Assembly: GCA_964372375.1 (NCBI GenBank)
Contig: CAYJQF010000001.1
Coordinates: forward strand, 1-62,052
Length of the DNA: 62,052 nucleotides
From: Candidatus Woesearchaeota archaeon
GTDB taxonomy: Archaea > Nanobdellota > Nanobdellia > Pacearchaeales > GW2011-AR1
Reading direction: 5' to 3'
The first letter of the stretch is position 1; every line of letters starts with the position of its first letter. The notes under the pieces were generated by a model. That model was not told the origin of the DNA. It saw nothing but the letters and a program-made list of their open reading frames with translations, and searched no databases. The position numbers were made by a program, and so were the translations under genes. Below, piece by piece: positions 13,158 through 62,052 of this stretch.

Positions 13158-14432
13158 TTATTCTACTTGCGCGTGCATACAGCCCATCGCTTCTAGTTGT
13201 TTTTTATGTTCGATAAGAAATTGTTTAATAAAAGTACGAGAGGGGAGAAGAAGTACGTGAGCGTATACTCTCCCTCTTTTTACAAATATGTTTTTATTCT
13301 TTTTTTTAAAGAGAGCAGCGTGTTTTTTCATTGAAAGAGGAGGGCCAGTATGCAGAACATTTTTTTTGGGAGTAAGCAAAAGATAGTACAAAGCACTTTG
13401 CTTGCCATCATATACAAATACTGATTTAGCAAGGGTATAATTCCGTGTACTTCCCTGTGCTATAAAGTCAGTCGCTTTCTTCAGCTTCGTTCCAGCAATA
13501 TCCCCTTCCTGCCGGTCAGTTTGAAGCCGAAGCATGACAAGATTCGCCTTCCTGCGTTTTGCTTCTTTTTCTAGTTCTTCTTTAGTTACCTCTTGTCTAA
13601 TAAAGAAAGAAAGAGACGGTTTTTTCAAATATGCTTGTATTGTCCTTTGCAGCTTCTGAAAGGTTTCTTGAGAGAGGGCACTTGCTACATTTCGATCCTT
13701 GCAGGTAGGATCAACCAGGACAAGCGGTCCTTGTATTTTACTTTCATTTAATTCCAAGAGCGCTGCATGTGGTGAAGTATAGTGCTTGTTAGGGTCTATA
13801 ACAAGTTTTTCTTTTGTCTGTGCAAGCGTCCGTACAAGTGCAGCAAAATTTTTATACTTAATGATAAGACATTCGAGCGCATATCCTGAAAGACCCTGAA
13901 TCCAGCTTTCTGCCCCATATGCTCCCTGTGCTTCGCAAAACGCTTTCGCGAGCACTACTTCCCTCGCTAATGCTTGAGTAAGCAGCTTTTTTACATATCG
14001 TACATGAAAATAGCTCAAGTCAGTTACATTTTCTGCTTTATCAGGCCGAGTAATATTAAGCACCGGAATAAGCTCAAATATAAGATTTTGATTCTGAATA
14101 AGCTGAAAATAGTCTCTGCTTCCATGAATACGTTTGCTCGGGATATGTAGTCGCTTTGAAACTTTCTGGACGAGGCGAGCGCATTGTTCAGTCAGAAAGT
14201 GTCCGGTGCGGAACCTGAGATAAATATCAATATCATACTGCTTCTTTTTCATCATTGTTCGTTTTGCGAAGCTTCCTCCTACAAAGACCTTTGCAGGTAT
14301 TTTTGTTTTTTTCAGCTCTTTGTTAAAGGCGTTTACAAGACGAGCAGTTTCCTGCGCAAGGTACTGATATTCCTGATGAGAGGGAGCGAGCGCTAACTTC
14401 TCAACTATGTTTATTCTTTCTACCATATACAA
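13158..14432 (-). CDS. cca: archaeal (class I) CCA-adding tRNA nucleotidyltransferase
   Basis: VGGSFAKRTMMKKKQYDIDIYLRF is the G-S..DxD nucleotidyltransferase motif. Size about 420 aa. The TATA ATTTAAATA at about 14454 favours a start at 14432 or 14426. Confidence 0.75.
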   Translation of the reverse strand: MYMVERINIVEKLALAPSHQEYQYLAQETARLVNAFNKELKKTKIPAKVFVGGSFAKRTMMKKKQYDIDIYLRFRTGHFLTEQCARLVQKVSKRLHIPSKRIHGSRDYFQLIQNQNLIFELIPVLNITRPDKAENVTDLSYFHVRYVKKLLTQALAREVVLAKAFCEAQGAYGAESWIQGLSGYALECLIIKYKNFAALVRTLAQTKEKLVIDPNKHYTSPHAALLELNESKIQGPLVLVDPTCKDRNVASALSQETFQKLQRTIQAYLKKPSLSFFIRQEVTKEELEKEAKRRKANLVMLRLQTDRQEGDIAGTKLKKATDFIAQGSTRNYTLAKSVFVYDGKQSALYYLLLTPKKNVLHTGPPLSMKKHAALFKKKNKNIFVKRGRVYAHVLLLPSRTFIKQFLIEHKKQLEAMGCMHAQVE

Positions 14433-14462: not shown

Positions 14463-14834
14463 TTAAGCATCGGGTATCTGTATATCAACAATATATTTAC
14501 CATCTTCAAGCTGGTAGATTTTTGGTTTTGCTTTTGAAAACAATTTAGGCAGGTCAATGGCATACTTTCCTGGCTTCATGACACGGACACTTTCAAAATC
14601 AAGGAATACCGGAGTCTCCTCGTCTTCAATGCCGGTAAGCTCTCGCACTTCTTCTTCGATCTGGACTTTCTCAGCTTCGCTTAAAGGAACTTCGTGCTGC
14701 ATTTGTTGCAGAATTTCCTTTACCTTCTCTTCTTTCATATAAAAGAAGAACTTGCTGCCGCATCTGCAGCCATCAAGGACTTGCTGGGCCTCATCAGCAT
14801 ACAAAGCGGAGCAATGGACACAACGGTAGGGCAT
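14463..14834 (-). CDS. Zn-ribbon protein of the archaeal GTPase-associated trio
   Basis: MPYRCVHCSALY..CRCGSKFF (CxxC..CxC), followed by an acidic region. It is co-directional with the two genes upstream of it. Confidence 0.6.
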   Translation of the reverse strand: MPYRCVHCSALYADEAQQVLDGCRCGSKFFFYMKEEKVKEILQQMQHEVPLSEAEKVQIEEEVRELTGIEDEETPVFLDFESVRVMKPGKYAIDLPKLFSKAKPKIYQLEDGKYIVDIQIPDA

Positions 14835-14874
14835 GCTTTAAAGAGAGGAGAGGGCTTAATAAACTTTTATTTAC

Positions 14875-15261
14875 TCAACTTAGCAATAATTCAATTTTCT
14901 TAGGATCTCGCTTAATATCTTTAATGACTGCAGCAGGGCCGATTACAGTAATAGCATTGCTGTCTCCGACTAGTCGTTTCGCAATCCTATATTTCATTTT
15001 ACCAAGCAAAGACTCATGCTTCATATCAGGTTCAATAACGGCCAGCTCAATACCTTTAAACTTCTTTACATGATCAACCAGCGCCATGGTATCTTCAATC
15101 AATCTGGCTTCCTCTTCCGCCCGCAACCTTCCATGTAAAATCACAATTTTGTTGCTTAAGATGAGGTTAAGAATTTTTTTTACACGTTCTGAGATGCCGA
15201 GCTCTTTAACTTCGGAAAAAGGGATTACCTGTAGACTCAATCCTTTAATTTTTTTTGTCAT
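14875..15261 (-). CDS. conserved archaeal protein (DUF2073-like, by recall)
   Basis: 128 aa with HGRLRAEEEARLIEDTMALVD..FKGIE. There is a 1-nt gap to the GTPase gene upstream. Confidence 0.5.
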   Translation of the reverse strand: MTKKIKGLSLQVIPFSEVKELGISERVKKILNLILSNKIVILHGRLRAEEEARLIEDTMALVDHVKKFKGIELAVIEPDMKHESLLGKMKYRIAKRLVGDSNAITVIGPAAVIKDIKRDPKKIELLLS

Positions 15262-15262
15262 G

Positions 15263-15901
15263 TTATACTTTTTTTGCGAGTCTAAATAGTGACTCGTAAA
15301 AATCTGCCATATACAGTCCTTCTTTAGCTGAGATTCCTATAACTTCATATTCAGGAAATGCAGTCTCGACTTTCTTCACATCTGCTTTTCTCAGGTCAAT
15401 CTTATTGGCAGCAATAAGCACAGGTATACTCCGTGCTACTAAATTGCCGATAATAGTGATATTTACCTGCGAATATGGATTTTCAGTTGCATCAAGCACA
15501 ATGACCACTGCATCCATATCATCGAGCCACTGGATAGACTCAATAATCCCTTGTGTCGCTTCTTTGGCGCGTTTTTTAGCTTCTCCTTTTTTAACTCCAT
15601 ACTTGAGAAAATCTTCATAGTCAATTTTAGTGGCAATACCTGGTGTATCTACCATCTTGAAAACAAGCGTTTTTCCTTTGTGCTTGATTTCTACTCGTTC
15701 TTTAAACTGCACATGTCTTGTTTCATGGGGAATCCTGCTTACAACACCAATTTCCTCCCCAGTCCAGTCTTTACAGATTCTATTTGCAAGACTTGTCTTT
15801 CCTGCATTTGGCGGTCCATAGAAACCAATCTTAATTGCCTGCTTGCGGCCAAATATTCTGGCGAGCATGCGCCTTGAGAAATTCTTGATTATTTTAAACA
15901 T
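15263..15901 (-). CDS. small GTP-binding protein
   Basis: G1 GPPNAGKTS, G3 DTPG, G4 NKID, G5 SAK. 212 aa. Confidence 0.85.
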   Translation of the reverse strand: MFKIIKNFSRRMLARIFGRKQAIKIGFYGPPNAGKTSLANRICKDWTGEEIGVVSRIPHETRHVQFKERVEIKHKGKTLVFKMVDTPGIATKIDYEDFLKYGVKKGEAKKRAKEATQGIIESIQWLDDMDAVVIVLDATENPYSQVNITIIGNLVARSIPVLIAANKIDLRKADVKKVETAFPEYEVIGISAKEGLYMADFYESLFRLAKKV

Positions 15902-39680: not shown

Positions 39681-40438
39681 AAGCAGCACTATTTGACAGC
39701 AAAGGAGCAAGCACTGCAGACATTGAATTGCCTGCTTTGTTTGCCAGACCAATTCGTGAAGATCTCGTTGCAAAATACGTTGAAGCAACAAAGTTTGCTT
39801 CACGCCAGCCGTATGCCACCTATAAAGAGGCGGGCAAGCGGCATTCAGCTTCCGGGACGATTAGTCATAAGCGCCATGAGTGGAAAGGCCATTATGGTAA
39901 AGGGATTGCCCGGCTTCCTAGAAAATCAATGTGGCGCCGTGGCACGCAGTTTTACTGGGTGGGTGCTGAAGTTTCAAATACGCGTGGCGGCAGAGTTGCG
40001 CATCCTCCTTCGGGTCTAACTGCTTTCAGAAAGATAAACAAGAAAGAGCAGGAACAAGCATTTCATGGTGCACTGGCTGCGACTATGTCATCTTTATATA
40101 TTAAAAAAAGATATGCTACGCTTACAACTCCACGCATGTCTGCCGTTATTGAGTCTTTGCCGGGAAAAACAAAGGAACTTTTTGCTACACTTAAAAACAT
40201 TTTCGGGAATGCTTTTTCTCTGGTTATCAAGCAAAAAGCAGTGCGGGCAGGAAAGGGTAAACGCAGAGGTAGAAAATACAAGGCAAATGCTGGACTTTTA
40301 CTCGTGACAGGCACTAATGAGAGTAAGCCCTTTAAGGGAATAGATTTAGTACAAGCAAAAGAACTTGCCATTACTGATCTCTCTCCCTTGGGCAGGCTCA
40401 CCTTATTCACCAAGCAAGCCTTGAAGGAGTTAGCATGA
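39677..40438 (+). CDS. rpl4: 50S ribosomal protein uL4
   Basis: Archaeal L4 pattern plus position; 4-nt overlap with rpl3. Confidence 0.9.
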   Translation: MKAALFDSKGASTADIELPALFARPIREDLVAKYVEATKFASRQPYATYKEAGKRHSASGTISHKRHEWKGHYGKGIARLPRKSMWRRGTQFYWVGAEVSNTRGGRVAHPPSGLTAFRKINKKEQEQAFHGALAATMSSLYIKKRYATLTTPRMSAVIESLPGKTKELFATLKNIFGNAFSLVIKQKAVRAGKGKRRGRKYKANAGLLLVTGTNESKPFKGIDLVQAKELAITDLSPLGRLTLFTKQALKELA

Positions 40439-40677
40439 TACTAAAGCCAGTCACCTCAGAAAAAGCAGTAAAACTGATTGATACACAGAACACGCTCTTA
40501 TTCCAAGTTGAAAGACAAAATACCAAGGCAGAGATTCAGAAGGAAGTAGAAACCATCTTCAGCGTGAAAGTACGCGGAGTGAGAACTCTTGTCCACCAGA
40601 ATAAAAAGTTCGCCTATGTCAAACTCGATACGAAATATCCCGCTATTGACATAGCTACTAAGGTAGGGATGATGTAA
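40435..40677 (+). CDS. rpl23: 50S ribosomal protein uL23
   Basis: 80 aa, ILKPVTSEKAVKLID..NTLLFQV. Confidence 0.9.
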   Translation: MILKPVTSEKAVKLIDTQNTLLFQVERQNTKAEIQKEVETIFSVKVRGVRTLVHQNKKFAYVKLDTKYPAIDIATKVGMM

Positions 40678-40678
40678 T

Positions 40679-41068
40679 ATGAAAAGAACAATGTTTATCC
40701 GATGGCAAATATATGAATTGGATTTTCCAAGCAGAGTAGCAGGGCTTAATGAGTTAGTAACTTACTTCGGTGTTTCCCCAGAAGATGTCCAAACACATGT
40801 TTTTTTTAGATTGCCAGGTTTTCAAGACGGGACATACCAAATCGGTTTACAGAAACTTGAGTTACGTCAAGAACAATGTTTATCCGATGGAACCAAGATA
40901 GCAATGATTGGAACACACAAGCCAAAAGTATCGCTTATACCTATCAAAACGCCTGAAGCAGAAGAAATTTATGAAAAAATAGCAAGATTATCTTTAGATT
41001 ATATGCTTGGTTTTGTAGAAGGACCACCTATTCCTGAATTTACAAGGATGGCTGGACAGCATGGGTAA
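40679..41068 (+). CDS. hypothetical protein inserted between rpl23 and rpl2
   Basis: 129-aa ORF, 1 nt after the rpl23 stop and overlapping the rpl2 start by 8 nt. It is not r-protein-like, is AT-richer than its flanks and contains a 22-nt direct repeat read in two frames. Confidence 0.55.
   Translation: MKRTMFIRWQIYELDFPSRVAGLNELVTYFGVSPEDVQTHVFFRLPGFQDGTYQIGLQKLELRQEQCLSDGTKIAMIGTHKPKVSLIPIKTPEAEEIYEKIARLSLDYMLGFVEGPPIPEFTRMAGQHG
40684..40705. repeat. 22-nt direct repeat, copy 1 (AAGAACAATGTTTATCCGATGG)
   Basis: Exact match to 40869-40890. Confidence 0.95.
40869..40890. repeat. 22-nt direct repeat, copy 2
   Basis: Exact match to 40684-40705. The 185-nt offset puts the copies in different reading frames. 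Confidence 0.95.
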
Positions 41069-41759
41069 GCGTATCATTTCCCAGGCACGAGGTCATGGTT
41101 CTCTCTCATATCAGGCAAAGAAGCGCGCGTTTATCTACAAAGTAAAGTATCCAATGCATCAAGGTGCTGCTGAGGTGCTTACCGTATTCCATTCTGCAGC
41201 ACATTCAGCACCACTCCTCAAGGTCAGAGCAGGAAAAGAAATCTTCTACAACCCCGCATTCAATGGTGCAGTTTCTGGGCAGACTATTCTCATTTTAGGG
41301 ACGCAGGCACAGCCAGGAAACATTCTTATGCTCAAAGATATTCCGGCAGGTTCAGCAGTCTACAATATAGAAAACAATCCGGGTGATGGTGGAAAAATGA
41401 TTCGTGCAGCAGGTTCATCTGCACTATTGGTAAAGAAACACGAGCACAATAAAGTATCTCTGCTCATGCCTCATAAGAAGGAGATTATTGTCTCAGGTGA
41501 TTGCAGGGCAACCATGGGAGTAATTGCAGGTGCCGGCCGTATTCTCAAACCATTTATAAAGGCGGGGCCGAAGTGGTATAAAATGAAAGCACGTAATAAA
41601 CTCTGGCCTCGGACATCTGCAGTTAAGATGAACGCAGTAGATCATCCGTTCGGCTCTGGTCGGGGAAAGAGAATCAAGTCAAAGATTGCAAAGCGCAATG
41701 CACCACCAGGAACACGAGTAGGTCATATTCGCCCGAGCAGAACAGGGAGGAGAAGATAA
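41061..41759 (+). CDS. rpl2: 50S ribosomal protein uL2
   Basis: MGKRIISQARGHGS.., C-terminal VDHPFGSGRG. Confidence 0.93.
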   Translation: MGKRIISQARGHGSLSYQAKKRAFIYKVKYPMHQGAAEVLTVFHSAAHSAPLLKVRAGKEIFYNPAFNGAVSGQTILILGTQAQPGNILMLKDIPAGSAVYNIENNPGDGGKMIRAAGSSALLVKKHEHNKVSLLMPHKKEIIVSGDCRATMGVIAGAGRILKPFIKAGPKWYKMKARNKLWPRTSAVKMNAVDHPFGSGRGKRIKSKIAKRNAPPGTRVGHIRPSRTGRRR

Positions 41760-42163
41760 TGGTAGAAGAAGTGCTTGTCAGGTCAAAGGAAGTATTTTAC
41801 CGGGGTAAGAACCTGAATGAATTGAAAAATCTTGATGTTCGTGAAGTTGCGAAATACCTGCCCTCTCGAAGCCGTCGTTCAGTATTACGAAATTTCCAGG
41901 TCATAGAAAAGTTTGTAAAGCGCTGTGAGACGGCACTTGCAAACAATAAACGGATTCGAACTCATTTGCGTGACTTAGTGATTGTGCCTAAGCTGGTAGG
42001 TATGCACATTGCAGTCCATAGTGGCAAGGCGTTCAATGAAGTACAAATTAAACACACGATGATAGGTCATCGTCTGGGCGAATTTGCCTTAACGCGGGGC
42101 AGAGTCACTCATGGTAAACCAGGTCTGGGAGCAACGAAGAGCTCCTCGACGGAGAAGAAGTAA
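41759..42163 (+). CDS. rps19: 30S ribosomal protein uS19
   Basis: Archaeal S19 pattern (HSGKAFNEVQIKHTMIGHRLGEFALTR). Confidence 0.9.
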   Translation: MVEEVLVRSKEVFYRGKNLNELKNLDVREVAKYLPSRSRRSVLRNFQVIEKFVKRCETALANNKRIRTHLRDLVIVPKLVGMHIAVHSGKAFNEVQIKHTMIGHRLGEFALTRGRVTHGKPGLGATKSSSTEKK

Positions 42164-42164
42164 C

Positions 42165-42791
42165 ATGGAAAAGCAATATGCGCCAACAAATGCAGAGAAG
42201 AAGCAGCCACAGAAGATTAAGCAGAGCCAGCAATTGTCAAAGCAAAATACAAATGTCAAGTCAGAGAGAGGAGAGGAAAAACAGGAAGAAAAAAAGATAG
42301 ATGTTGTACCAGATACTACGAAAGGTCCAGAGATAAGAGAAACAAAAGAGAAAGAACAGAAACAAGAGACGAAGCAGGAAGCAAAGCCTCAGAAGGTCAA
42401 GAAAGAAGAAGCGATAGCTCGCGGAGATTCACTCTCCATGTCAAAGAAACACGGCATGTACTTGTGTTCATTCATCAAGCAGAAGAGTGTGGATACAGCA
42501 CTTGCAGAACTGGAGGAAGTGATAAAATTGAAGAGAGCCATACCCTTTAAGGGAGAGATCCCGCATCGCCATAATCCAGGCATGATGTCAGGAAGGTATC
42601 CGGTAAATGCTTCAAAATGCATGATTCAGGTTCTGAAAGGCTTGCGGGGAAATATACTTGCAAATGGACTTTCCGTGGATAAGGCAAAGATTTATTGGGC
42701 ATCAGCTTCCTGGGCATCACGCCCTGCACGACGAGGTGGCACGAGGTTTAAAAGAGCACACATCATCCTCAAAGCTAAGGAGTTTACCTAA
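42165..42791 (+). CDS. rpl22: 50S ribosomal protein uL22 with an N-terminal K/E/Q-rich extension of about 95 aa
   Basis: The core starts near ARGDSLSMSKKHGMYLCSFIKQKSVDTALAELEEVI. ATG 42165 lies just after the rps19 stop, so the ORF-track start at 42111 was rejected. Confidence 0.88.
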   Translation: MEKQYAPTNAEKKQPQKIKQSQQLSKQNTNVKSERGEEKQEEKKIDVVPDTTKGPEIRETKEKEQKQETKQEAKPQKVKKEEAIARGDSLSMSKKHGMYLCSFIKQKSVDTALAELEEVIKLKRAIPFKGEIPHRHNPGMMSGRYPVNASKCMIQVLKGLRGNILANGLSVDKAKIYWASASWASRPARRGGTRFKRAHIILKAKEFT

Positions 42792-43462
42792 TGGAAGAGA
42801 AAAAATTTGTCATCTTTAAGAAAGAAGAACTGGGCGTAAAAGAATATATAAAGAAAGAGTTGGGCAAAGGGCGTATTAGCGCAGTTACCATCGAGTACAC
42901 ACCCATTGGAGAAAAGATAGTGATTGCGACAAGCAAGCCGGGCCTGGTTATTGGAAGGAGGGGAGAGAAAATTGATGAGCTCACTCGTGTATTGAAGAAG
43001 CGCTTTAAGCTTGACAATCCTCATATTGAAATTCGTGAGATTTTGGAGCCGCGATTGGATGCGCAGCTTGTTGCTGATGAAATTGCTTTAAGCTTGGAAC
43101 GCCAAGGCTCACTCAAATTCAAAGTGGTTGCATATAAAATGCTTCAGGAAATTATGCGTGCCAGCGCCCTAGGAGCAGAAATTGTACTATCAGGCAGATT
43201 ACCGAGTGAGCGGGCAAAGTCTTGGCGGTTTGCGCAAGGGTATCTAAAGAAAACAGGCGATCCGGCAAAAGTAGTGGACAAGGCAACAGCGCAGGCAATT
43301 AATATAGCCGGGGTTACTGGTATTAAAGTAAGCATTCTGCCGCCACATGCACTCATTCATGACCGGATTGTTGTTGATGATGCATTCAAAGCAAAGCTCA
43401 CACAGCATTCGTTGGTTGTTGAAGAACCAGCCGTAAAGAAAAAGCGGGGAGGCAAGAAGTAA
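42791..43462 (+). CDS. rps3: 30S ribosomal protein uS3
   Basis: KH domain (KPGLVIGRRGEKIDEL) and position. Confidence 0.92.
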   Translation: MEEKKFVIFKKEELGVKEYIKKELGKGRISAVTIEYTPIGEKIVIATSKPGLVIGRRGEKIDELTRVLKKRFKLDNPHIEIREILEPRLDAQLVADEIALSLERQGSLKFKVVAYKMLQEIMRASALGAEIVLSGRLPSERAKSWRFAQGYLKKTGDPAKVVDKATAQAINIAGVTGIKVSILPPHALIHDRIVVDDAFKAKLTQHSLVVEEPAVKKKRGGKK

Positions 43463-43663
43463 ATGGCCTTAATAAAAGCAAAAGATGCAGCAAAAATGAA
43501 CAAGGAAGAGCTGGAAGCAAAGATGAAAGATGTGCGCTTTGAGTTGGTAAAGGCGAATGTTACCGCACATAAAGCTTCAGCAAAGACTAAAGAAATAAAA
43601 AAAACAATTGCCCGTCTATTCACGTTCCAAAAAATGAAAACGGAGGTGTCGGCAAAGAATTGA
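43463..43663 (+). CDS. rpl29: 50S ribosomal protein uL29
   Basis: 66 aa, MNKEELEAKMKDVRFELVKA. Confidence 0.9.
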   Translation: MALIKAKDAAKMNKEELEAKMKDVRFELVKANVTAHKASAKTKEIKKTIARLFTFQKMKTEVSAKN

Positions 43664-43664
43664 T

Positions 43665-43973
43665 ATGGAAAGCGATCCTGATCCACGGCTCGGACTACCA
43701 ACGGGCGCTGATATATTCGAGGAGATTGCCAAGAGCGAGCAGAAAATAAGCATCACTACCGTTTCACGGCGATACGGCAAGATTACTACGCTTGTTCAAG
43801 GATTTGAGAAGACAGTTGATATCAAAGGCACTGCAAAAAAGCTTAAAGAGCGGCTTGCATGTGGGGGAACAGTCAAAGAAAATATTATTGAACTTCAGGG
43901 AAATCACAAGAAACAAGTCAAACCAATTTTGGTCAAGCTTGGATTCCCTGAGGCATCCATAACCGACTCATAA
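43665..43973 (+). CDS. sui1: translation initiation factor aSUI1/eIF1
   Basis: RRYGKITTLVQGFE..LKERLACGGTVKENIIELQGNHK. Confidence 0.88.
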   Translation: MESDPDPRLGLPTGADIFEEIAKSEQKISITTVSRRYGKITTLVQGFEKTVDIKGTAKKLKERLACGGTVKENIIELQGNHKKQVKPILVKLGFPEASITDS

Positions 43974-43974
43974 C

Positions 43975-44319
43975 ATGGCACCAAAAACAAAGGAAACAAA
44001 CAGCAAGAAAACGCAAGAAAGGAAGGAAGTAGCAGTGCCTACACGTGGGAGAATCTTCGAAGGCACGATTACAAAGAAATTCGCCACCCGCGCAGTCCTT
44101 GAATTTGAGCGCACGATATATATGAAAAAGTTTGAGCGTTTCTACAAGAAGAAAACAAGGATTCATGCGCGCATTCCTGCAGGCATGCAGGTTGAGGTAG
44201 GAGAGTACGTACGTGTTCAGGAATGCAGGCCGTTAAGCAAGATTATTCATCATGTAGTTATTGAGAAACTAAGGTCAGTTGAGCAAAAAAGTAAGCAGGA
44301 AACGGGAGATAAAAAATGA
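43975..44319 (+). CDS. rps17: 30S ribosomal protein uS17
   Basis: GRIFEGTITKKFATRAVLEFER..VRVQECRPLSK. Confidence 0.9.
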   Translation: MAPKTKETNSKKTQERKEVAVPTRGRIFEGTITKKFATRAVLEFERTIYMKKFERFYKKKTRIHARIPAGMQVEVGEYVRVQECRPLSKIIHHVVIEKLRSVEQKSKQETGDKK

Positions 44320-44600
44320 GTACTATAACTATTTATGATGTTGATAGAAAATACTGGCAGGCATTAGAGGGAATTAATGCATGTATGGAGATTGTAGAAG
44401 GAAATGGTTCAAGTCAAGAATTTTTAAGAGAATTTAGATCTGTTGCCGAGGAATACCCATCTGCAGAACTTCTGAGGGGTAATAGCAATATCTTCGTCTG
44501 GGACAAGGTTCTTTCAGAAAAGGTTTCTTCTTTCAGGGATAAATTAGTAGAAGTATTTGGGACTAAGGATGCACTATTAGCAGAGGCACTGACGCAATGA
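44316..44600 (+). CDS. hypothetical acidic protein inserted between rps17 and rpl14
   Basis: 94-aa ORF with ATGA overlaps at both ends. About 16 acidic against 10 basic residues, AT-richer than its flanks, no recognised family. It is not the Rpp29 expected near here in many archaea. Confidence 0.55.
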   Translation: MSTITIYDVDRKYWQALEGINACMEIVEGNGSSQEFLREFRSVAEEYPSAELLRGNSNIFVWDKVLSEKVSSFRDKLVEVFGTKDALLAEALTQ

Positions 44601-44998
44601 AAGCAGTATCTGCTCTCGTTACTCGAGGCCTGAACATAGGAAGTAAAGTCGTTGCCGCTGACAATTCAGGAGCCCGCATTGTTAGAATTACTTCAGTCGT
44701 TCATGGCAAATCCAGGAAAGGCAGGCAGCAGTTTGCAAAAGTAGCGGATTGGGTAAAGGTATCAGTGCGTGCAGGTAAGCCGGAGATGAAAGGGCAGGTC
44801 TTTGATGCAGTGATTATCAGGCAACGTATGCCCTATCGGAGAAGGACGGGAGAGCGAGTTTGCTTTGAAGATAATGCGGTTGCCCTGCTCAAGGATGAAA
44901 AAGGCAATCCCAAAGGCACGTTCATTAAAGGACCGGTAGCCAGGGAAATACATGAACGTTGGAAGGAGGTCGCCAAACTGGCGCAATATGTGCTATGA
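44597..44998 (+). CDS. rpl14: 50S ribosomal protein uL14
   Basis: ADNSGARIVRITSV..; 133 aa. Confidence 0.93.
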   Translation: MKAVSALVTRGLNIGSKVVAADNSGARIVRITSVVHGKSRKGRQQFAKVADWVKVSVRAGKPEMKGQVFDAVIIRQRMPYRRRTGERVCFEDNAVALLKDEKGNPKGTFIKGPVAREIHERWKEVAKLAQYVL

Positions 44999-45357
44999 GT
45001 AATTCAAAAATTTCTGATGAGAGAAGAGTAGAACTTTTGAGAGAAATTGCAGCAGGAAATGAAAATTTGCTTGAATTTATAGCATGCGAGAAAGATGCAA
45101 AAGATTTTCAAGAATTTCTAGAGTTTGTACACAATGTTGAAGTAGGGTCTTTGGAGGCAGCTCGTAAAATAGCCGATAAATATCAACCTATAGTCGTAAA
45201 CTTACTTGTCATGCCTTCTGCAGATTATCAATGTCCAAGACAGGAATACCGACAATTGAATAGATTTGCAGTAGAGAGGGCCCAGATAAAAGTTCAAGAG
45301 TATCTCGCAGCAAGGCAGATAATAGCGCATATTGGAATGGTAGGAGGCGAGCAATGA
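44995..45357 (+). CDS. hypothetical acidic protein inserted between rpl14 and rpl24
   Basis: 120 aa from ATG 44995, with ATGA overlaps at the rpl14 stop and the rpl24 start. Sampled GC is about 32 %. No recognised family. Confidence 0.55.
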   Translation: MSNSKISDERRVELLREIAAGNENLLEFIACEKDAKDFQEFLEFVHNVEVGSLEAARKIADKYQPIVVNLLVMPSADYQCPRQEYRQLNRFAVERAQIKVQEYLAARQIIAHIGMVGGEQ

Positions 45358-45746
45358 AATCCTCATTTTCCTCTTCTTGGAATGCGAGCAGGCAGCGCAG
45401 GAAGCAGCATAAATACCGCTTGCAAGCGCCCTTACATACAAAGCATAAGTTTTTAAGCGCTCATCTTTCTAAAGAATTACGAAAGAAGTATGGCAAGAGA
45501 AGTCTTCCCCTCCGGAAAGGGGATGAGGTGCTTGTCATGCGCGGCAGCTTCACTAAGAAGCGCGCCAAAGTCGTTTCTGTTAATCTCACTGCAGGCATAG
45601 TTGCGTTGGAAGGGATCCAGCGTACAAAACGTGACGGTACAAAAGTGCAAGTACCATTTAATCCGCGTGCACTTCAGATCAGCACGCTCTTTTTAGAAGA
45701 TAAGGAACGACTTGCAATTTTTACAAGGAAACAAGGAAGAACATAA
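45354..45746 (+). CDS. rpl24: 50S ribosomal protein uL24
   Basis: SRQRRKQHKYRLQAPLHTKHKFLSAHLSKELRKKYGKRSLPLRKGDEVLVMRG. Confidence 0.92.
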   Translation: MKSSFSSSWNASRQRRKQHKYRLQAPLHTKHKFLSAHLSKELRKKYGKRSLPLRKGDEVLVMRGSFTKKRAKVVSVNLTAGIVALEGIQRTKRDGTKVQVPFNPRALQISTLFLEDKERLAIFTRKQGRT

Positions 45747-46363
45747 TGCATCTTACCAGAAAAGAAACATCAGTACTCCTCCCAATACGGCGGAAGGGGA
45801 CAAAATACATAGCGCGAGCTGCATCTCATGTCTTTACAGCAGTGCCGGTGCTGATCGCGGTACGTGACATGTTAAAGATAGCACGCACTGCTGCTGAAGT
45901 GAAACACCTTATTCATAATAAGCTGCTCAAGATTAATGGGAAGCTGGTTCGAGATATGCATGAAAGCATCAAGTTATTCAATCTTTTCGAGGCCGATAAG
46001 AACTATCTGCTCACTCTTTCCTCTACAGGTAGATTTATTTTTAAGGAGACCAAGCTGCATGAACGGCTCTGTAAGGTAGTGAATCGTAGGTTGATTGAAC
46101 AAGGAAAGACACAATTAAATTTGCATGATGGTTCAAATCTAATAACGAAAGGAGATATAGCAATTGGAGACTCGGTATATCTTGACTTTGCTGGTAAGAT
46201 GGTAAAACACAAAGCGCTGGCAAAGGGCGCTTCCGTGTTTGTTATCGCCGGCAAGTATGCCGGCCTTGATTCAAAACTCATTGATGTGGTAGCCAAGAAA
46301 GTAACGATTAAACAAGAAGGAGGGACTGCCGTGCTTAATCAAAGAGCAGTTATTGCAGTATGA
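45746..46363 (+). CDS. rps4e: 30S ribosomal protein eS4
   Basis: Archaeal S4e pattern and position. Confidence 0.9.
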   Translation: MHLTRKETSVLLPIRRKGTKYIARAASHVFTAVPVLIAVRDMLKIARTAAEVKHLIHNKLLKINGKLVRDMHESIKLFNLFEADKNYLLTLSSTGRFIFKETKLHERLCKVVNRRLIEQGKTQLNLHDGSNLITKGDIAIGDSVYLDFAGKMVKHKALAKGASVFVIAGKYAGLDSKLIDVVAKKVTIKQEGGTAVLNQRAVIAV

Positions 46364-46860
46364 GTAACAGTATGCGTACGGTAAAGATTGAAAAAGTTAT
46401 TTTGAGCGCCGGCAGTACAGCAGATAATTTAGCAAAAGCAAAAAAACTGCTTGAGTTTGTTACCAAGAAGAAAGCGCAGATTGTTGCCTCGAGAAAACGT
46501 ATCCCTGATTTTGGAGTACGTCCCGGGCTTGAAGTAGGAACACGGGTTACTCTAAGAGGAAAAGAGGCAATTGCTTTACTAAGGAGATTGCTTGGAGCAA
46601 TAGATAATACACTCACCAAGAAGCAGGTTACTGATAATCACTTTTCTTTTGGAATTAAAGAATATATCGAAATACCAGAGATAGAATATCAACGCGATAT
46701 AGGCATTCGTGGATTTAATACAACCGTAGTATTTGCACGAGCAGGTTTACGCGTACAAAGGAAGAAGATCAAGGCAGGCCAGATCCCCAGACGGCAGCAT
46801 GTTTCCCAGGAAGAAATCATCAAGTATATGGAGGACGTCTTTAAGACGAACATTAAATGA
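46360..46860 (+). CDS. rpl5: 50S ribosomal protein uL5
   Basis: Pattern and position. Confidence 0.9.
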   Translation: MSNSMRTVKIEKVILSAGSTADNLAKAKKLLEFVTKKKAQIVASRKRIPDFGVRPGLEVGTRVTLRGKEAIALLRRLLGAIDNTLTKKQVTDNHFSFGIKEYIEIPEIEYQRDIGIRGFNTTVVFARAGLRVQRKKIKAGQIPRRQHVSQEEIIKYMEDVFKTNIK

Positions 46861-53413: not shown

Positions 53414-53953
53414 TTATAATAATTGGAATTGCGCTGCTTCTCTTTTCTGTAATTCAGCAAAATACGTTTGAGTATGTGCACGCACTTGTTTAAGCAAGCT
53501 CATATGATGTTGTGGAACGTCACCTACTTCATCATATAATCCGGTATGAAAACACATTCCACGGTAAGTTACCTTATGGTCTTCGTCCCTTTCTCCTTCA
53601 AATTTCAATTCAAGTGCGCCATTAACGACACTTTGTGCATAAAGATTTCCACGTACATCAACCAGTACTTCTTTTCTCGGCACTGGTTGTCCTTTGACTA
53701 CTTTATCAACAATGCCATATCCAATAGTTATCTGGTTAGAAACAGCAAGTTCAACACGGCAAGGAATCTCTTGTGCAAGATACGTCAAATAGGTTTCGAG
53801 CTCTTCTCCAGTAAAAGGTCGTGGAAAGGCTATGCTCTCCAATTCAGATAGAGAAGGTTCTTCTCTCCTTGGCAAAATGCTAGTGCCTTCATCTCCACTC
53901 ATGTACCTGCATCCAAGAGGTAGGTTATAAACTTTATGGTGTTTCATTGCCAA
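53414..53953 (-). CDS. hypothetical protein
   Basis: 179-aa ORF with native composition and no recognised family. Confidence 0.5.
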   Translation of the reverse strand: MAMKHHKVYNLPLGCRYMSGDEGTSILPRREEPSLSELESIAFPRPFTGEELETYLTYLAQEIPCRVELAVSNQITIGYGIVDKVVKGQPVPRKEVLVDVRGNLYAQSVVNGALELKFEGERDEDHKVTYRGMCFHTGLYDEVGDVPQHHMSLLKQVRAHTQTYFAELQKREAAQFQLL

Positions 53954-61043: not shown

Positions 61044-61099
61044 TCCGTTTCTATCCTTAAATAGTAATCCATGTTTTTATAGTTTAATTGTATTTTTAT

Positions 61100-61195
61100 A
61101 TGATGAAATTTGAAGGCAATAAAATAATTTCAGAAAAAGTAATAAACAGGCTGGACAGGTTTGTTATAGATTTTATAAATGAATTAAGTATTTAA
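61100..61195 (+). CDS. 31-codon ORF, possibly a gene fragment
   Basis: MMKFEGNKIISEKVINRLDRFVIDFINELSI*, in the AT-rich terminal segment. Very uncertain. Confidence 0.15.
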   Translation: MMKFEGNKIISEKVINRLDRFVIDFINELSI

Positions 61196-61253
61196 ACCTT
61201 TCGGTTAGTAACATAGTAAAACTTATATACTAAAGAGGATATAACTATTCAAT

Positions 61254-61406
61254 ATGGGAAAGATTAAATTAGAAGGCTATGTTTGCGAGCGTTGCAGTCA
61301 TAAATGGGTTCCTCGAGAAACAACAACAGAAGAGCCGAAAGTCTGCCCTAAGTGCAAAAGCCCTTATTGGAATACGCCGAGAAAAAGTAAGGTTAAGAAG
61401 GGATAA
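61254..61406 (+). CDS. zinc-ribbon miniprotein (50 aa)
   Basis: MGKIKLEGYVCERCSHKWVPRETTTEEPKVCPKCKSPYWNTPRKSKVKKG has CxxC..CxxC followed by the SPYWN.PR motif common in small archaeal Zn-ribbon proteins. It is below the ORF-track cutoff. Confidence 0.6.
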   Translation: MGKIKLEGYVCERCSHKWVPRETTTEEPKVCPKCKSPYWNTPRKSKVKKG

Positions 61407-61439
61407 GGTGGTCGTTAAAAAAATTAAGGTGATTAACTA

Positions 61440-62052
61440 ATGATAAACAAAAGAGGCTTGACTTCAAAAGAGACTGCAGAAAAATTAACAGATTATGGAT
61501 ATAATGAAATAAAAGAGCTTCTTCGCATATCACCATTTCAGATTCTTTTAAGGCAAATAAAGAAGAATTTTATAGTATATTTATTACTTGTTGCAGTCTT
61601 ATTGTCCTTTATTGTAGGCAAAACAATAACTGCATATACAATTTTAGGGGTTATTGTTATTGTAATCGCTGTTGGATTTTTTCAGGAATATAAGGCAGAA
61701 AGAGCAATTAAGGCATTAAAACAGATACTTGTTCCTATTTCTATTGTCATAAGGGATGGAAAAGAAGTAGAAGTTTCTTCAAAAGAAATAGTGCCTGATG
61801 ATGTGGTTGTCTTGAGAACAGGAGAAAAGGTTCCAGCTGATTGCCTTGTTTTAGAAGAAAAAGAATTGCAAGTAGACGAGTCAATATTGACTGGAGAATC
61901 TCAAGCAGTAAGAAAGTTTGCAGCAAAAAATGAGAAAAACTATGATAAGAAAAATTTAGTTTATATGGGCACCTATGTTATTAGCGGAAGATGTATCGCT
62001 AAAGTTTTACACACTGGTATGAATACAGAATTTGGCAAAATCGCAGGGATGA
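61440..62052 (+). CDS. cation-transporting P-type ATPase, N-terminal part (continues past the right edge)
   Basis: The ATG at 61440 follows AAGGTGAT. GLTSKETAEKLTDYGYNEI is the cation-ATPase N-terminal motif; two TMs follow, then the actuator-domain motif DESILTGES. There is no stop in the window. Confidence 0.85.
   Translation, partial: MINKRGLTSKETAEKLTDYGYNEIKELLRISPFQILLRQIKKNFIVYLLLVAVLLSFIVGKTITAYTILGVIVIVIAVGFFQEYKAERAIKALKQILVPISIVIRDGKEVEVSSKEIVPDDVVVLRTGEKVPADCLVLEEKELQVDESILTGESQAVRKFAAKNEKNYDKKNLVYMGTYVISGRCIAKVLHTGMNTEFGKIAGM

Follow-up and report, generated by a model that had tools for sequence, protein, structure and literature searches.

The S10-spc cluster of ribosomal protein genes is a textbook example of frozen gene order and is the backbone of marker-gene phylogenies and metagenome binning. 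In archaea this cluster contains extra open reading frames (ORFs), first unidentified in Methanococcus, that are co-oriented with the universal ribosomal protein genes in which they are embedded, are coupled to them and keep fixed positions across archaea (eS4, eL32, eL19, SUI1 and Rpp29). Here we describe a 120-codon ORF, named ins3, which lies between the uL14 and uL24 genes in a stretch of 62,052 nucleotides (the window) from a Candidatus Woesearchaeota archaeon (GenBank assembly GCA_964372375.1, contig CAYJQF010000001.1). Two further inserts, ins1 and ins2, are present in the same operon. ins3 resembles the classical extra ORFs in orientation, embedding and coupling. However, the class in which the sequence comparisons place it, consisting of highly diverse ORFs located exactly between ribosomal protein genes throughout the clade, is patchy, and its members are mutually unrelated and apparently dispensable; ins3 itself is neither found at the same position lineage-wide nor conserved like its neighbours. 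We consider it fairly likely that ins3 is a real, translationally coupled and dispensable passenger gene, accessory and non-ribosomal, in the ribosomal protein operon of a DPANN archaeon, and it is probably not a new part of the ribosome. Considered by itself, ins3 is an orphan among accessory genes; what makes the finding interesting is the class as a whole, spread over the clade, together with the compensation by Shine-Dalgarno (SD) motifs described below.

The arrangement of the ins3 ends has a known counterpart in archaeal gene pairs that overlap by ATGA, in which termination and reinitiation are strictly coupled and the contribution of the SD motif varies from gene to gene (PMC6728339). 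The same overlap is found at both ends of ins3, where coupling is read from the sequence, and in both cases an SD motif can lie inside the upstream ORF, where it modulates reinitiation. The partners of the pairs described there (PMC6728339) often encode subunits of one complex, whereas ins3 would be an unrelated passenger spliced into such a pair.

Junction ORFs are of an already known kind, namely accessory genes lodged between conserved core genes, and several mobile or viral systems invite comparison. Phage morons are likewise small, diverse, mostly domain-less genes of deviant composition, placed at gene boundaries of a conserved module and present or absent between close relatives; moreover, the few domains of junction ORFs (MazG, DEDD exonuclease) are typical of phage accessory functions. 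Morons, however, usually have their own promoter and terminator and reside in viral genomes, whereas junction ORFs sit in an essential cellular operon and are apparently expressed by means of overlaps and in-ORF SD motifs. In fact, ins3 is separated from neither neighbour by intergenic sequence (0 nt on both sides; no scan for archaeal promoters was made), and no relative of it was found in a scan of viral contigs. Free-standing homing endonuclease genes (seg/mob of T4-like phages) are also inserted between highly conserved genes, with a patchy distribution and hints of exchange through the flanks, and a sporadic distribution at a fixed site is what is seen at the uL14–uL24 junction. Nevertheless, junction ORFs are half the usual size of such genes, and no GIY-YIG, HNH, LAGLIDADG or PD-(D/E)XK domain or fold was found among them; for ins3, searches of Pfam, PHROGs, PADLOC and NCBIfam gave none of these nuclease domains, nor EDxHD. 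Integrons offer a docking platform that gathers unrelated, small, promoter-less ORFs in one orientation, but no integrase, attI or attC-like repeat was found here (the 3' end of ins3 has no imperfect inverted repeat of the attC type) and the sites are spread over many junctions instead of forming one array. Of the hallmarks of transposable elements (insertion sequences or miniature inverted-repeat elements), neither terminal inverted repeats, nor a target-site duplication, nor a transposase domain (Pfam) was found for ins3, its flanking repeats being limited to the 4-nt ATGA at both ends. Unlike the RNA leaders of ribosomal protein operons, ins3 has no Rfam match (positions 40000-46500, up to E = 1) and no stable fold, the RNA/DNA fold of its region being no more stable than that of shuffled sequence (z = +1.39); a structured RNA at ins3 is unlikely. 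As for defence proteins, no PADLOC match was obtained for ins1, ins2 or ins3.

The proposed dispensability of ins3 for the ribosome follows from the state of the site in close relatives, which have nothing or an unrelated ORF there. The nearest full-length relative (L003), which groups with the window in a neighbour-joining tree of four proteins, contains an unrelated 83-aa ORF between uL14 and uL24, and in another relative (L104) the junction is empty. The two loci nearest by uL24 identity (L133, 931-1035, and L088, 110-214) carry at this site a mini-ORF of 35 codons, with an ATGA overlap linking its start to uL14 and with AGAGG in front of uL24, which shows that even very short ORFs can be coupled passengers. 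No relative closer than 76% uL24 identity was detected in a metagenome scan. Occupied uL14–uL24 sites mostly hold unrelated families, with uL14 being 69-91% identical throughout. Absence from close relatives, which the sequence-only reading had named as a point against its own view, is thus what was observed: ins3 is missing, or is replaced by unrelated ORFs, with intact flanking genes.

The extent of this phenomenon was determined in about 160 operons, obtained from 80 species-representative loci (via uL14), 80 metagenome loci (via uL24) and a few contigs reached via homologues. The survey covers the junctions of the ribosomal protein operon only, and a junction was scored as interrupted when the gap was 120 nt or more. 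Interruption was frequent at uL23–uL2 (50/104), uL14–uL24 (71/158, with 87 of 158, or 55%, empty) and uS17–uL14 (48/139), followed by uL3–uL4 (25/92), uL2–uS19 (21/107) and uL5–uS14 (23/134), and was rare at uS3–uL29 (5/99), uL29–SUI1 (1/103), SUI1–uS17 (4/128), uL24–eS4 (6/154) and eL19–uL18 (4/118). We also considered whether insertion hot spots track the most conserved flanks, and dropped this idea, since uS3 is highly conserved and yet uS3–uL29 is almost never occupied. When the 100 loci in which 15 or more junctions could be scored were compared, the median number of interruptions was 2 (maximum 13); 26 loci had none and 46 had at least three. The presence of three inserts in one operon, as in the window (3 of 19 junctions interrupted), is therefore ordinary for the clade, and the rare, coordinated novelty implied by the sequence-only reading did not hold.

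The inserted sequences behave as genes of the operon. The longest ORF had the orientation of the operon in 180 gaps and the reverse orientation in 13, and in 168 of 202 cases it took up over 80% of the gap. About 75% of the inserted ORFs (152/198) start at -4 (ATGA), +1 or -1 nt from the upstream stop, the -4 overlap being the commonest arrangement (74/198), and their ends are placed likewise with respect to the downstream start. Their median length is 99 aa (typically 80-140 codons), their isoelectric points (pI) are bimodally distributed, and in 82% of them the GC content at third codon positions (GC3) is below that of the neighbouring ribosomal protein genes. At uL14–uL24 the gaps, too, fall into two size classes (10 nt or less at 78 sites, 180-420 nt at 59), which speaks for gain and loss of whole units and not for gradual growth or decay. 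An independent gene caller showed the same kind of unidentified ORFs between ribosomal protein genes on other contigs.

The diversity of these ORFs is extreme. The 385 inserted ORFs (343 non-redundant) fell into 277 BLASTP clusters, 215 of which were singletons. Multi-member clusters were mostly confined to a single junction; seven spanned different junctions, including paralogue pairs in one genome. Iterative profile searches enlarged a few families to 12-17 members and did not merge the singletons into superfamilies. A Pfam match was obtained for 4 of 149 scanned junction ORFs (two DEDD exonucleases, one MazG and one TPR protein), PADLOC matched only two DEDDh exonucleases, and PHROGs and NCBIfam added no domain in the same set. 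The exonucleases represent a family of about 200 aa (RNase T/DnaQ-like DEDD type) which is found inside the operon at uL4–uL23 and eL32–eL19 in different genomes (L010, L027, L024, L071, L149/L150), and the MazG-like pyrophosphatase lies at another junction of the ribosomal protein operon.

A comparison of occupied and empty junctions revealed how uL24 translation may be maintained. Where the uL14–uL24 site is empty, the uL24 start lies in an ATGA overlap and an SD-like motif precedes it in only 5 of 70 cases, whereas at occupied sites a GGAGG-like motif is found in the 3' end of the insert, 5-12 nt before the uL24 ATG, in 43 of 61 (Fisher p = 1e-14). The same contrast was observed at uL23–uL2 (27/45 occupied vs. 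4/43 empty) and uL5–uS14 (18/22 vs. 25/90), with p values of 5e-7 and 5e-6. The inserted ORFs themselves are not preceded by SD motifs more often than expected (24% vs. a 21% background at empty junctions, with a stricter five-base match), and no SD-like motif was found upstream of the ins3 start. In ins3 the AGGAGG falls inside the predicted disordered C-terminal tail of the protein model (…GMVGGEQ).

These observations suggest the following mechanism. ins3 would be co-transcribed with the ribosomal protein operon, and ribosomes that terminate on uL14 would reinitiate on ins3 at the overlapping AUGA without an SD motif; the protein is probably translated in this way, at a reduced level. AGGAGG in the last ins3 codons, 6 nt before the uL24 AUG, would then restore efficient initiation of uL24. 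The insert would be tolerated because both coupling signals have been rebuilt, and its piecemeal loss would be hard because a nonsense or frameshift mutation would hit the essential downstream gene.

The family of ins3 is very small. When 1.84 billion representative proteins were searched exhaustively with HMMER, three true relatives, with 38-47% identity, were found (an additional ankyrin-repeat match was rejected as spurious), and a profile search of 5.8 billion clusters returned the same four family proteins only. A word-indexed search of 5.8e9 proteins found ins3 itself and no other protein. All four members are located between uL14 and uL24. Their alignment contains 27 invariant columns arranged in two blocks, GN-x2-LLEFI-x2-EKD-x2-DF and EY-x2-L-x2-FA-x2-RA. 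When the four sequences were given to AlphaFold2, a confident model was obtained (predicted local distance difference test 86, predicted template modelling score 0.76) with the topology helix-helix-long helix-strand-helix-strand. With a pI of 5.23 and 19 D/E vs. 15 K/R, the product is mildly acidic, so that the helical, acidic protein expected by the sequence-only reading is borne out, with two short strands in a mostly helical model. ins3 is thus predicted to form a small alpha/beta domain of mildly acidic character and to be moderately constrained by purifying selection. No match was found in sequence searches of Pfam, PHROGs, PADLOC, NCBIfam or the PDB. With Foldseek, the best E values of the model were 0.29 (PDB) and 0.19 (BFVD), none being below 0.1, and no ribosomal or assembly protein was matched; partial matches to RuvC/TnpB-like proteins (template modelling scores 0.3-0.4) were regarded as noise for a protein of two strands. 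HHalign comparison of the ins3 family with 39 other junction-ORF families gave probabilities below 1% in all cases.

The proportion of nonsynonymous differences in ins3 was 1.6-2.2 times that of the pooled flanking ribosomal protein genes in all six pairs of the family. The ratio of nonsynonymous to synonymous substitution rates (dN/dS) was 0.35-0.48 in the five computable pairs, values that are upper bounds because dS is saturated. ins3 therefore appears to be a moderately constrained protein which, within a small subclade, was inherited along with its flanks. An argument for horizontal transfer based on synonymous differences of saturated pairs was dropped, as AT-skewed third positions lower the saturation plateau. 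Among junction ORFs at large, pairs with unsaturated dS gave dN/dS values of 0.24-0.87, compared to 0.00-0.20 for ribosomal protein genes of the same genome pairs; judged from these ratios, some junction ORFs are nearly neutral and others moderately constrained.

Some inserts diverge much faster than their surroundings. In one pair of loci (L136/L143) the synonymous divergence of the insert was 0.24-0.31 vs. 0.076 in the flanks. In another (L132/L135) it was 0.39 vs. 0.001, with indels, over 3263 identical flanking codons; here, in sister contigs, the short repetitive insert at uL24–eS4 (L132 7420-7681, L135 7420-7709) differs by about 8% plus several indels. Such an excess points to allele replacement or local hypermutation, and the uL24–eS4 insert would be either a strain-level hypervariable spot or a case of allele replacement. 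At uL14–uL24, families F1, F5 and F8 are scattered across distant branches of the neighbour-joining tree.

The three inserts of the window appear to have separate histories, because loci with the ins2 family lack the ins3 family, a locus with an ins3 homologue (L084) lacks relatives of ins1 and ins2 (it has no uL23–uL2 insert and an unrelated ORF at uS17–uL14), and ins1 is a singleton. The phylogenetic co-occurrence of the three ORFs, raised by the sequence-only reading, was indeed not observed: the ins2 family is present in 13 loci, none of which contains the ins3 family. No relative of ins1 was detected in the set of 385 junction ORFs. Within ins1 itself, a 22-nt sequence, AAGAACAATGTTTATCCGATGG, forms a perfect direct repeat at positions 40684-40705 and 40869-40890, for which the chance expectation in 13 kb is about 5e-6; since the copies are 185 nt apart, they fall into different reading frames of ins1 (KRTMFIRW and QEQCLSDG). 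This repeat may be a trace of how the insert sequence arose. The ins2 family (F0/A4) comprises about 20 clusters, and the members from the locus survey, together with the contigs of one member that was looked up, are all at uS17–uL14. ins2 lacks the most conserved block of the family, 22 residues (DNP…W-x7-RWL-x-GS) that are nearly invariant in the 19 other members found, and despite this deletion it is in frame and ATGA-coupled. An ORF of the operon can apparently persist after losing the conserved core of its family, which fits a lock-in by polar effects. The predicted fold of the ins2 family, a generic three-helix bundle, was uninformative.

The window contains an archaeal operon of the S10-spc type, with the order uL3-uL4-uL23-[ins1]-uL2-uS19-uL22-uS3-uL29-SUI1-uS17-[ins2]-uL14-[ins3]-uL24-eS4-uL5-uS14-uS8-uL6-eL32-eL19-uL18-uS5-uL30-uL15-SecY. 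The organism is a DPANN archaeon of the Pacearchaeota/Woesearchaeota type, and the nearest uL14 genes occur in metagenome-assembled genomes labelled Pacearchaeota, Woesearchaeota or Nanoarchaeota. The positions of ins3, its flanks and the two other inserts are listed in Table 1; the 120-codon frame with ATGA overlaps at both ends, its quoted peptide and the extents of the two other inserts all agree with the sequence-only reading.

Table 1. Location of ins3, its coupling signals, its flanking genes and the other two inserts (positions in the window)
Feature	Position	Strand	Evidence or remark
uL14 (rpl14), upstream flank	44597-44998	+	Pfam Ribosomal_L14, E 2.6e-32; 69-91% identity to relatives
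ins3, putative 120-aa passenger ORF (family F6, alignment A1)	44995-45357	+	ATG at 44995, TGA at 45355-45357
ATGA overlap of uL14 stop and ins3 start, putative termination-reinitiation site	44995-44998	+	read from the sequence
AGGAGG, SD-like, in the final ins3 codons, 6 nt before the uL24 ATG	45342-45347	+	sequence
ATGA overlap of ins3 stop and uL24 start	45354-45357	+	read from the sequence
uL24 (rpl24), downstream flank	45354-45746	+	Pfam Ribosomal_L26, E 5.3e-26
ins2, putative 94-aa passenger ORF at uS17–uL14	44316-44600	+	family F0/A4, internally deleted member
ins1, putative 129-aa passenger ORF at uL23–uL2, singleton	40679-41068	+	no Pfam match

The base composition of the inserts is deviant. 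The GC content of ins3 is 37.7% and not about 32%, as had been estimated from a sample, and it is not the single lowest of the operon; it is nevertheless among the three lowest, which are those of the three inserts (37.2, 37.5 and 37.7%, vs. 38-49% in the other operon genes). GC3 is the clearer signal: it is 0.25-0.28 in the inserts (26% in ins3), as compared to about 0.42 in ribosomal protein genes and 0.376 in the other genes of the window, and values as low were found in only 2.5% of 120-codon windows taken from other genes. Outside the operon, the sole gene with an insert-like composition is a 179-aa ORF on the minus strand (53414-53953; GC3 0.27; no Pfam match). The suspected similarity in codon usage to the AT-rich segment near 61 kb was confirmed, the relative synonymous codon usage of the three inserts correlating with that of a putative P-type ATPase fragment (61.4-62.05 kb) with r = 0.80, vs. 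r = 0.6 with the rest of the window. This likeness is compatible with a foreign origin, and may also stem from a shared AT bias at third positions alone. The segment in question (61050-62052, GC 32%) comprises intergenic sequence, an ORF for a small zinc-ribbon protein (61254-61406) and the 5' portion of an ATPase-like ORF, which starts at 61440, has a GC3 of 0.235 and was likened to the P-type ATPases by eye only.

The possibility that ins3 is an artefact, be it a chimeric contig, a uL14 or uL24 extended by a frameshift or an ORF that arose by chance, had only the deviant composition in its favour and is already refuted. An identical ins3 protein, at the same position, was found in the Logan assemblies of two other runs (ERR3478686 and ERR4904391), the first of which contains all three inserts; two independent assemblies with the identical protein exclude a chimeric assembly, which the sequence-only reading had considered. 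Moreover, uL14 ends and uL24 starts at positions conserved in relatives, the chance probability of a 120-codon open frame at the ins3 base composition is about 5e-5, and homologues occupy the same site in three other genomes. The opinion of the sequence-only reading that the inserts are not annotation noise is upheld: they are co-oriented, tightly coupled and recovered in the further assemblies, and for ins3 there are in addition the signs of purifying selection and the confident predicted fold.

Some points weigh against ins3 being a dispensable accessory passenger. Translational coupling and the role of the SD motif are deduced from the nucleotide sequence; the estimate of purifying selection is based on saturated comparisons; the specificity of the inserts for the ribosomal protein operon is unproven, as that operon alone was surveyed; and the tree used in the replacement argument, built from four short proteins, is poorly resolved at depth, so that replacement and horizontal exchange are not rigorously separable. 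The acidic charge beside very basic neighbours (pI 5.2, vs. 10.7 and 11.6) also fits a ribosome-related role. According to such an explanation, ins3 would be a lineage-specific ribosome-associated protein (a ribosomal protein, an assembly factor or a chaperone of uL14/uL24) made in step with its neighbours, and the position coupled tightly on both sides, the purifying selection, the confident fold and a divergence that scales with that of the flanks would all be accounted for. There are precedents: once-unidentified ORFs of archaeal S10/spc operons were subsequently recognised as the genes of eS4, eL32, eL19, SUI1 and an RNase P subunit, and a dedicated uL14 chaperone, Bcp1, exists in eukaryotes. 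We nevertheless regard this explanation as unlikely, considering that just 4 family members were found among 1.84e9 representative proteins, that the site, despite a uL14 identity of 69-91%, is empty in 55% of the relatives and mostly filled by unrelated families in the remainder, and that only 39% of the ORFs at uL14–uL24 are acidic, with no common property even at one junction. Furthermore, HHalign gave no link to other junction families (<1%), and the model matched no ribosomal or assembly protein.

It is rather improbable, too, that ins3 is a functionless spacer, kept open and in frame to hand ribosomes over to uL24 because its disruption would be polar on an essential gene. The low GC3, scarcity of domains and extreme diversity of the class speak for a spacer, and so do several close pairs of junction ORFs with dN/dS of 0.78-0.87, the open and coupled state of ins2 without the most conserved block of its family, and the mini-ORF of 35 codons with the same coupling at uL14–uL24 in L133 and L088. 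However, the conservation of ins3 is strongly blocky, with 27 invariant columns, its fold is predicted with confidence and its dN/dS is at most 0.35-0.48, other junction ORFs reaching 0.24-0.33; besides, an SD motif in the 3' end of an ORF should reduce the downstream dependence on read-through of the insert. Very improbable, in our opinion, is a selfish mobile cassette that targets this junction and spreads between lineages by recombination through the conserved flanks, with ins3 as its cargo or its agent, in the manner of free-standing homing endonuclease genes between conserved phage genes. Exchange of this kind would explain the distant branches occupied by F1, F5 and F8, the seven families at more than one junction (within-genome paralogue pairs included), the excess of insert over flank synonymous divergence (0.39 vs. 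0.001 in L132/L135 and 0.24-0.31 vs. 0.076 in L136/L143), the bimodal gap sizes, which suggest gain and loss of whole units, and the foreign-like codon usage. Yet searches for domains and folds of nucleases, integrases or transposases were negative, no terminal repeat, inverted or direct, is present apart from ATGA, the scanned viral contigs contain no relatives, and ins3 is present at one junction only, with a divergence that tracks that of the flanks.

Returning to ins3 as an accessory passenger, a broader proposal can be made tentatively, although we hold it to be somewhat doubtful: the S10-spc junctions of Pacearchaeota-like DPANN archaea would form a docking and expression platform for hyperdiverse, exchangeable small genes, whose entry and retention would depend on rebuilt AUGA overlaps and in-ORF SD motifs and not on promoters or recombination sites, ins3 being one fixed, functional product. 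The same junctions may also be a cradle for new genes. If true, cells with tiny genomes would have a so far undescribed route by which accessory proteins are acquired, expressed and turned over within the operon that they conserve most. A description of the clade-wide pattern was not found in the full-text literature on DPANN and archaeal ribosomal protein clusters, which is absence of evidence within one library. With up to half of some junctions occupied, in one large archaeal group, by unrelated and fast-evolving small genes, the S10-spc operon is far more permissive than assumed. Junction ORFs offer a natural system for the insertion, expression and loss of new genes under strong polar constraint, and the survey draws attention to hundreds of orphan proteins for which high expression in DPANN cells is probable. 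They are also a warning against taking any single junction ORF as a new ribosomal component.

A few other features of the window were observed. In the region 42111-42300, the uL22 ORF starts far upstream of the part that can be aligned to other uL22 proteins, overlaps the end of uS19 and encodes a long N-terminal extension rich in lysine and glutamate; the length of this region differs among relatives, which inflates the apparent uS19–uL22 gaps. In most archaea the Rpp29 gene sits between SUI1 and uS17; in the window (43665-44319) no ORF for this RNase P protein is present there, and the two genes are 1 nt apart. Finally, the origin-associated proteins OapC (14463-14834) and OapB (14875-15261), both identified by Pfam matches, are encoded on the minus strand at 14463-15261, adjoining a putative P-loop ORF (15263-15901) and a 424-aa ORF (13158-14432), and a replication origin is probably located near 13-16 kb of the window.

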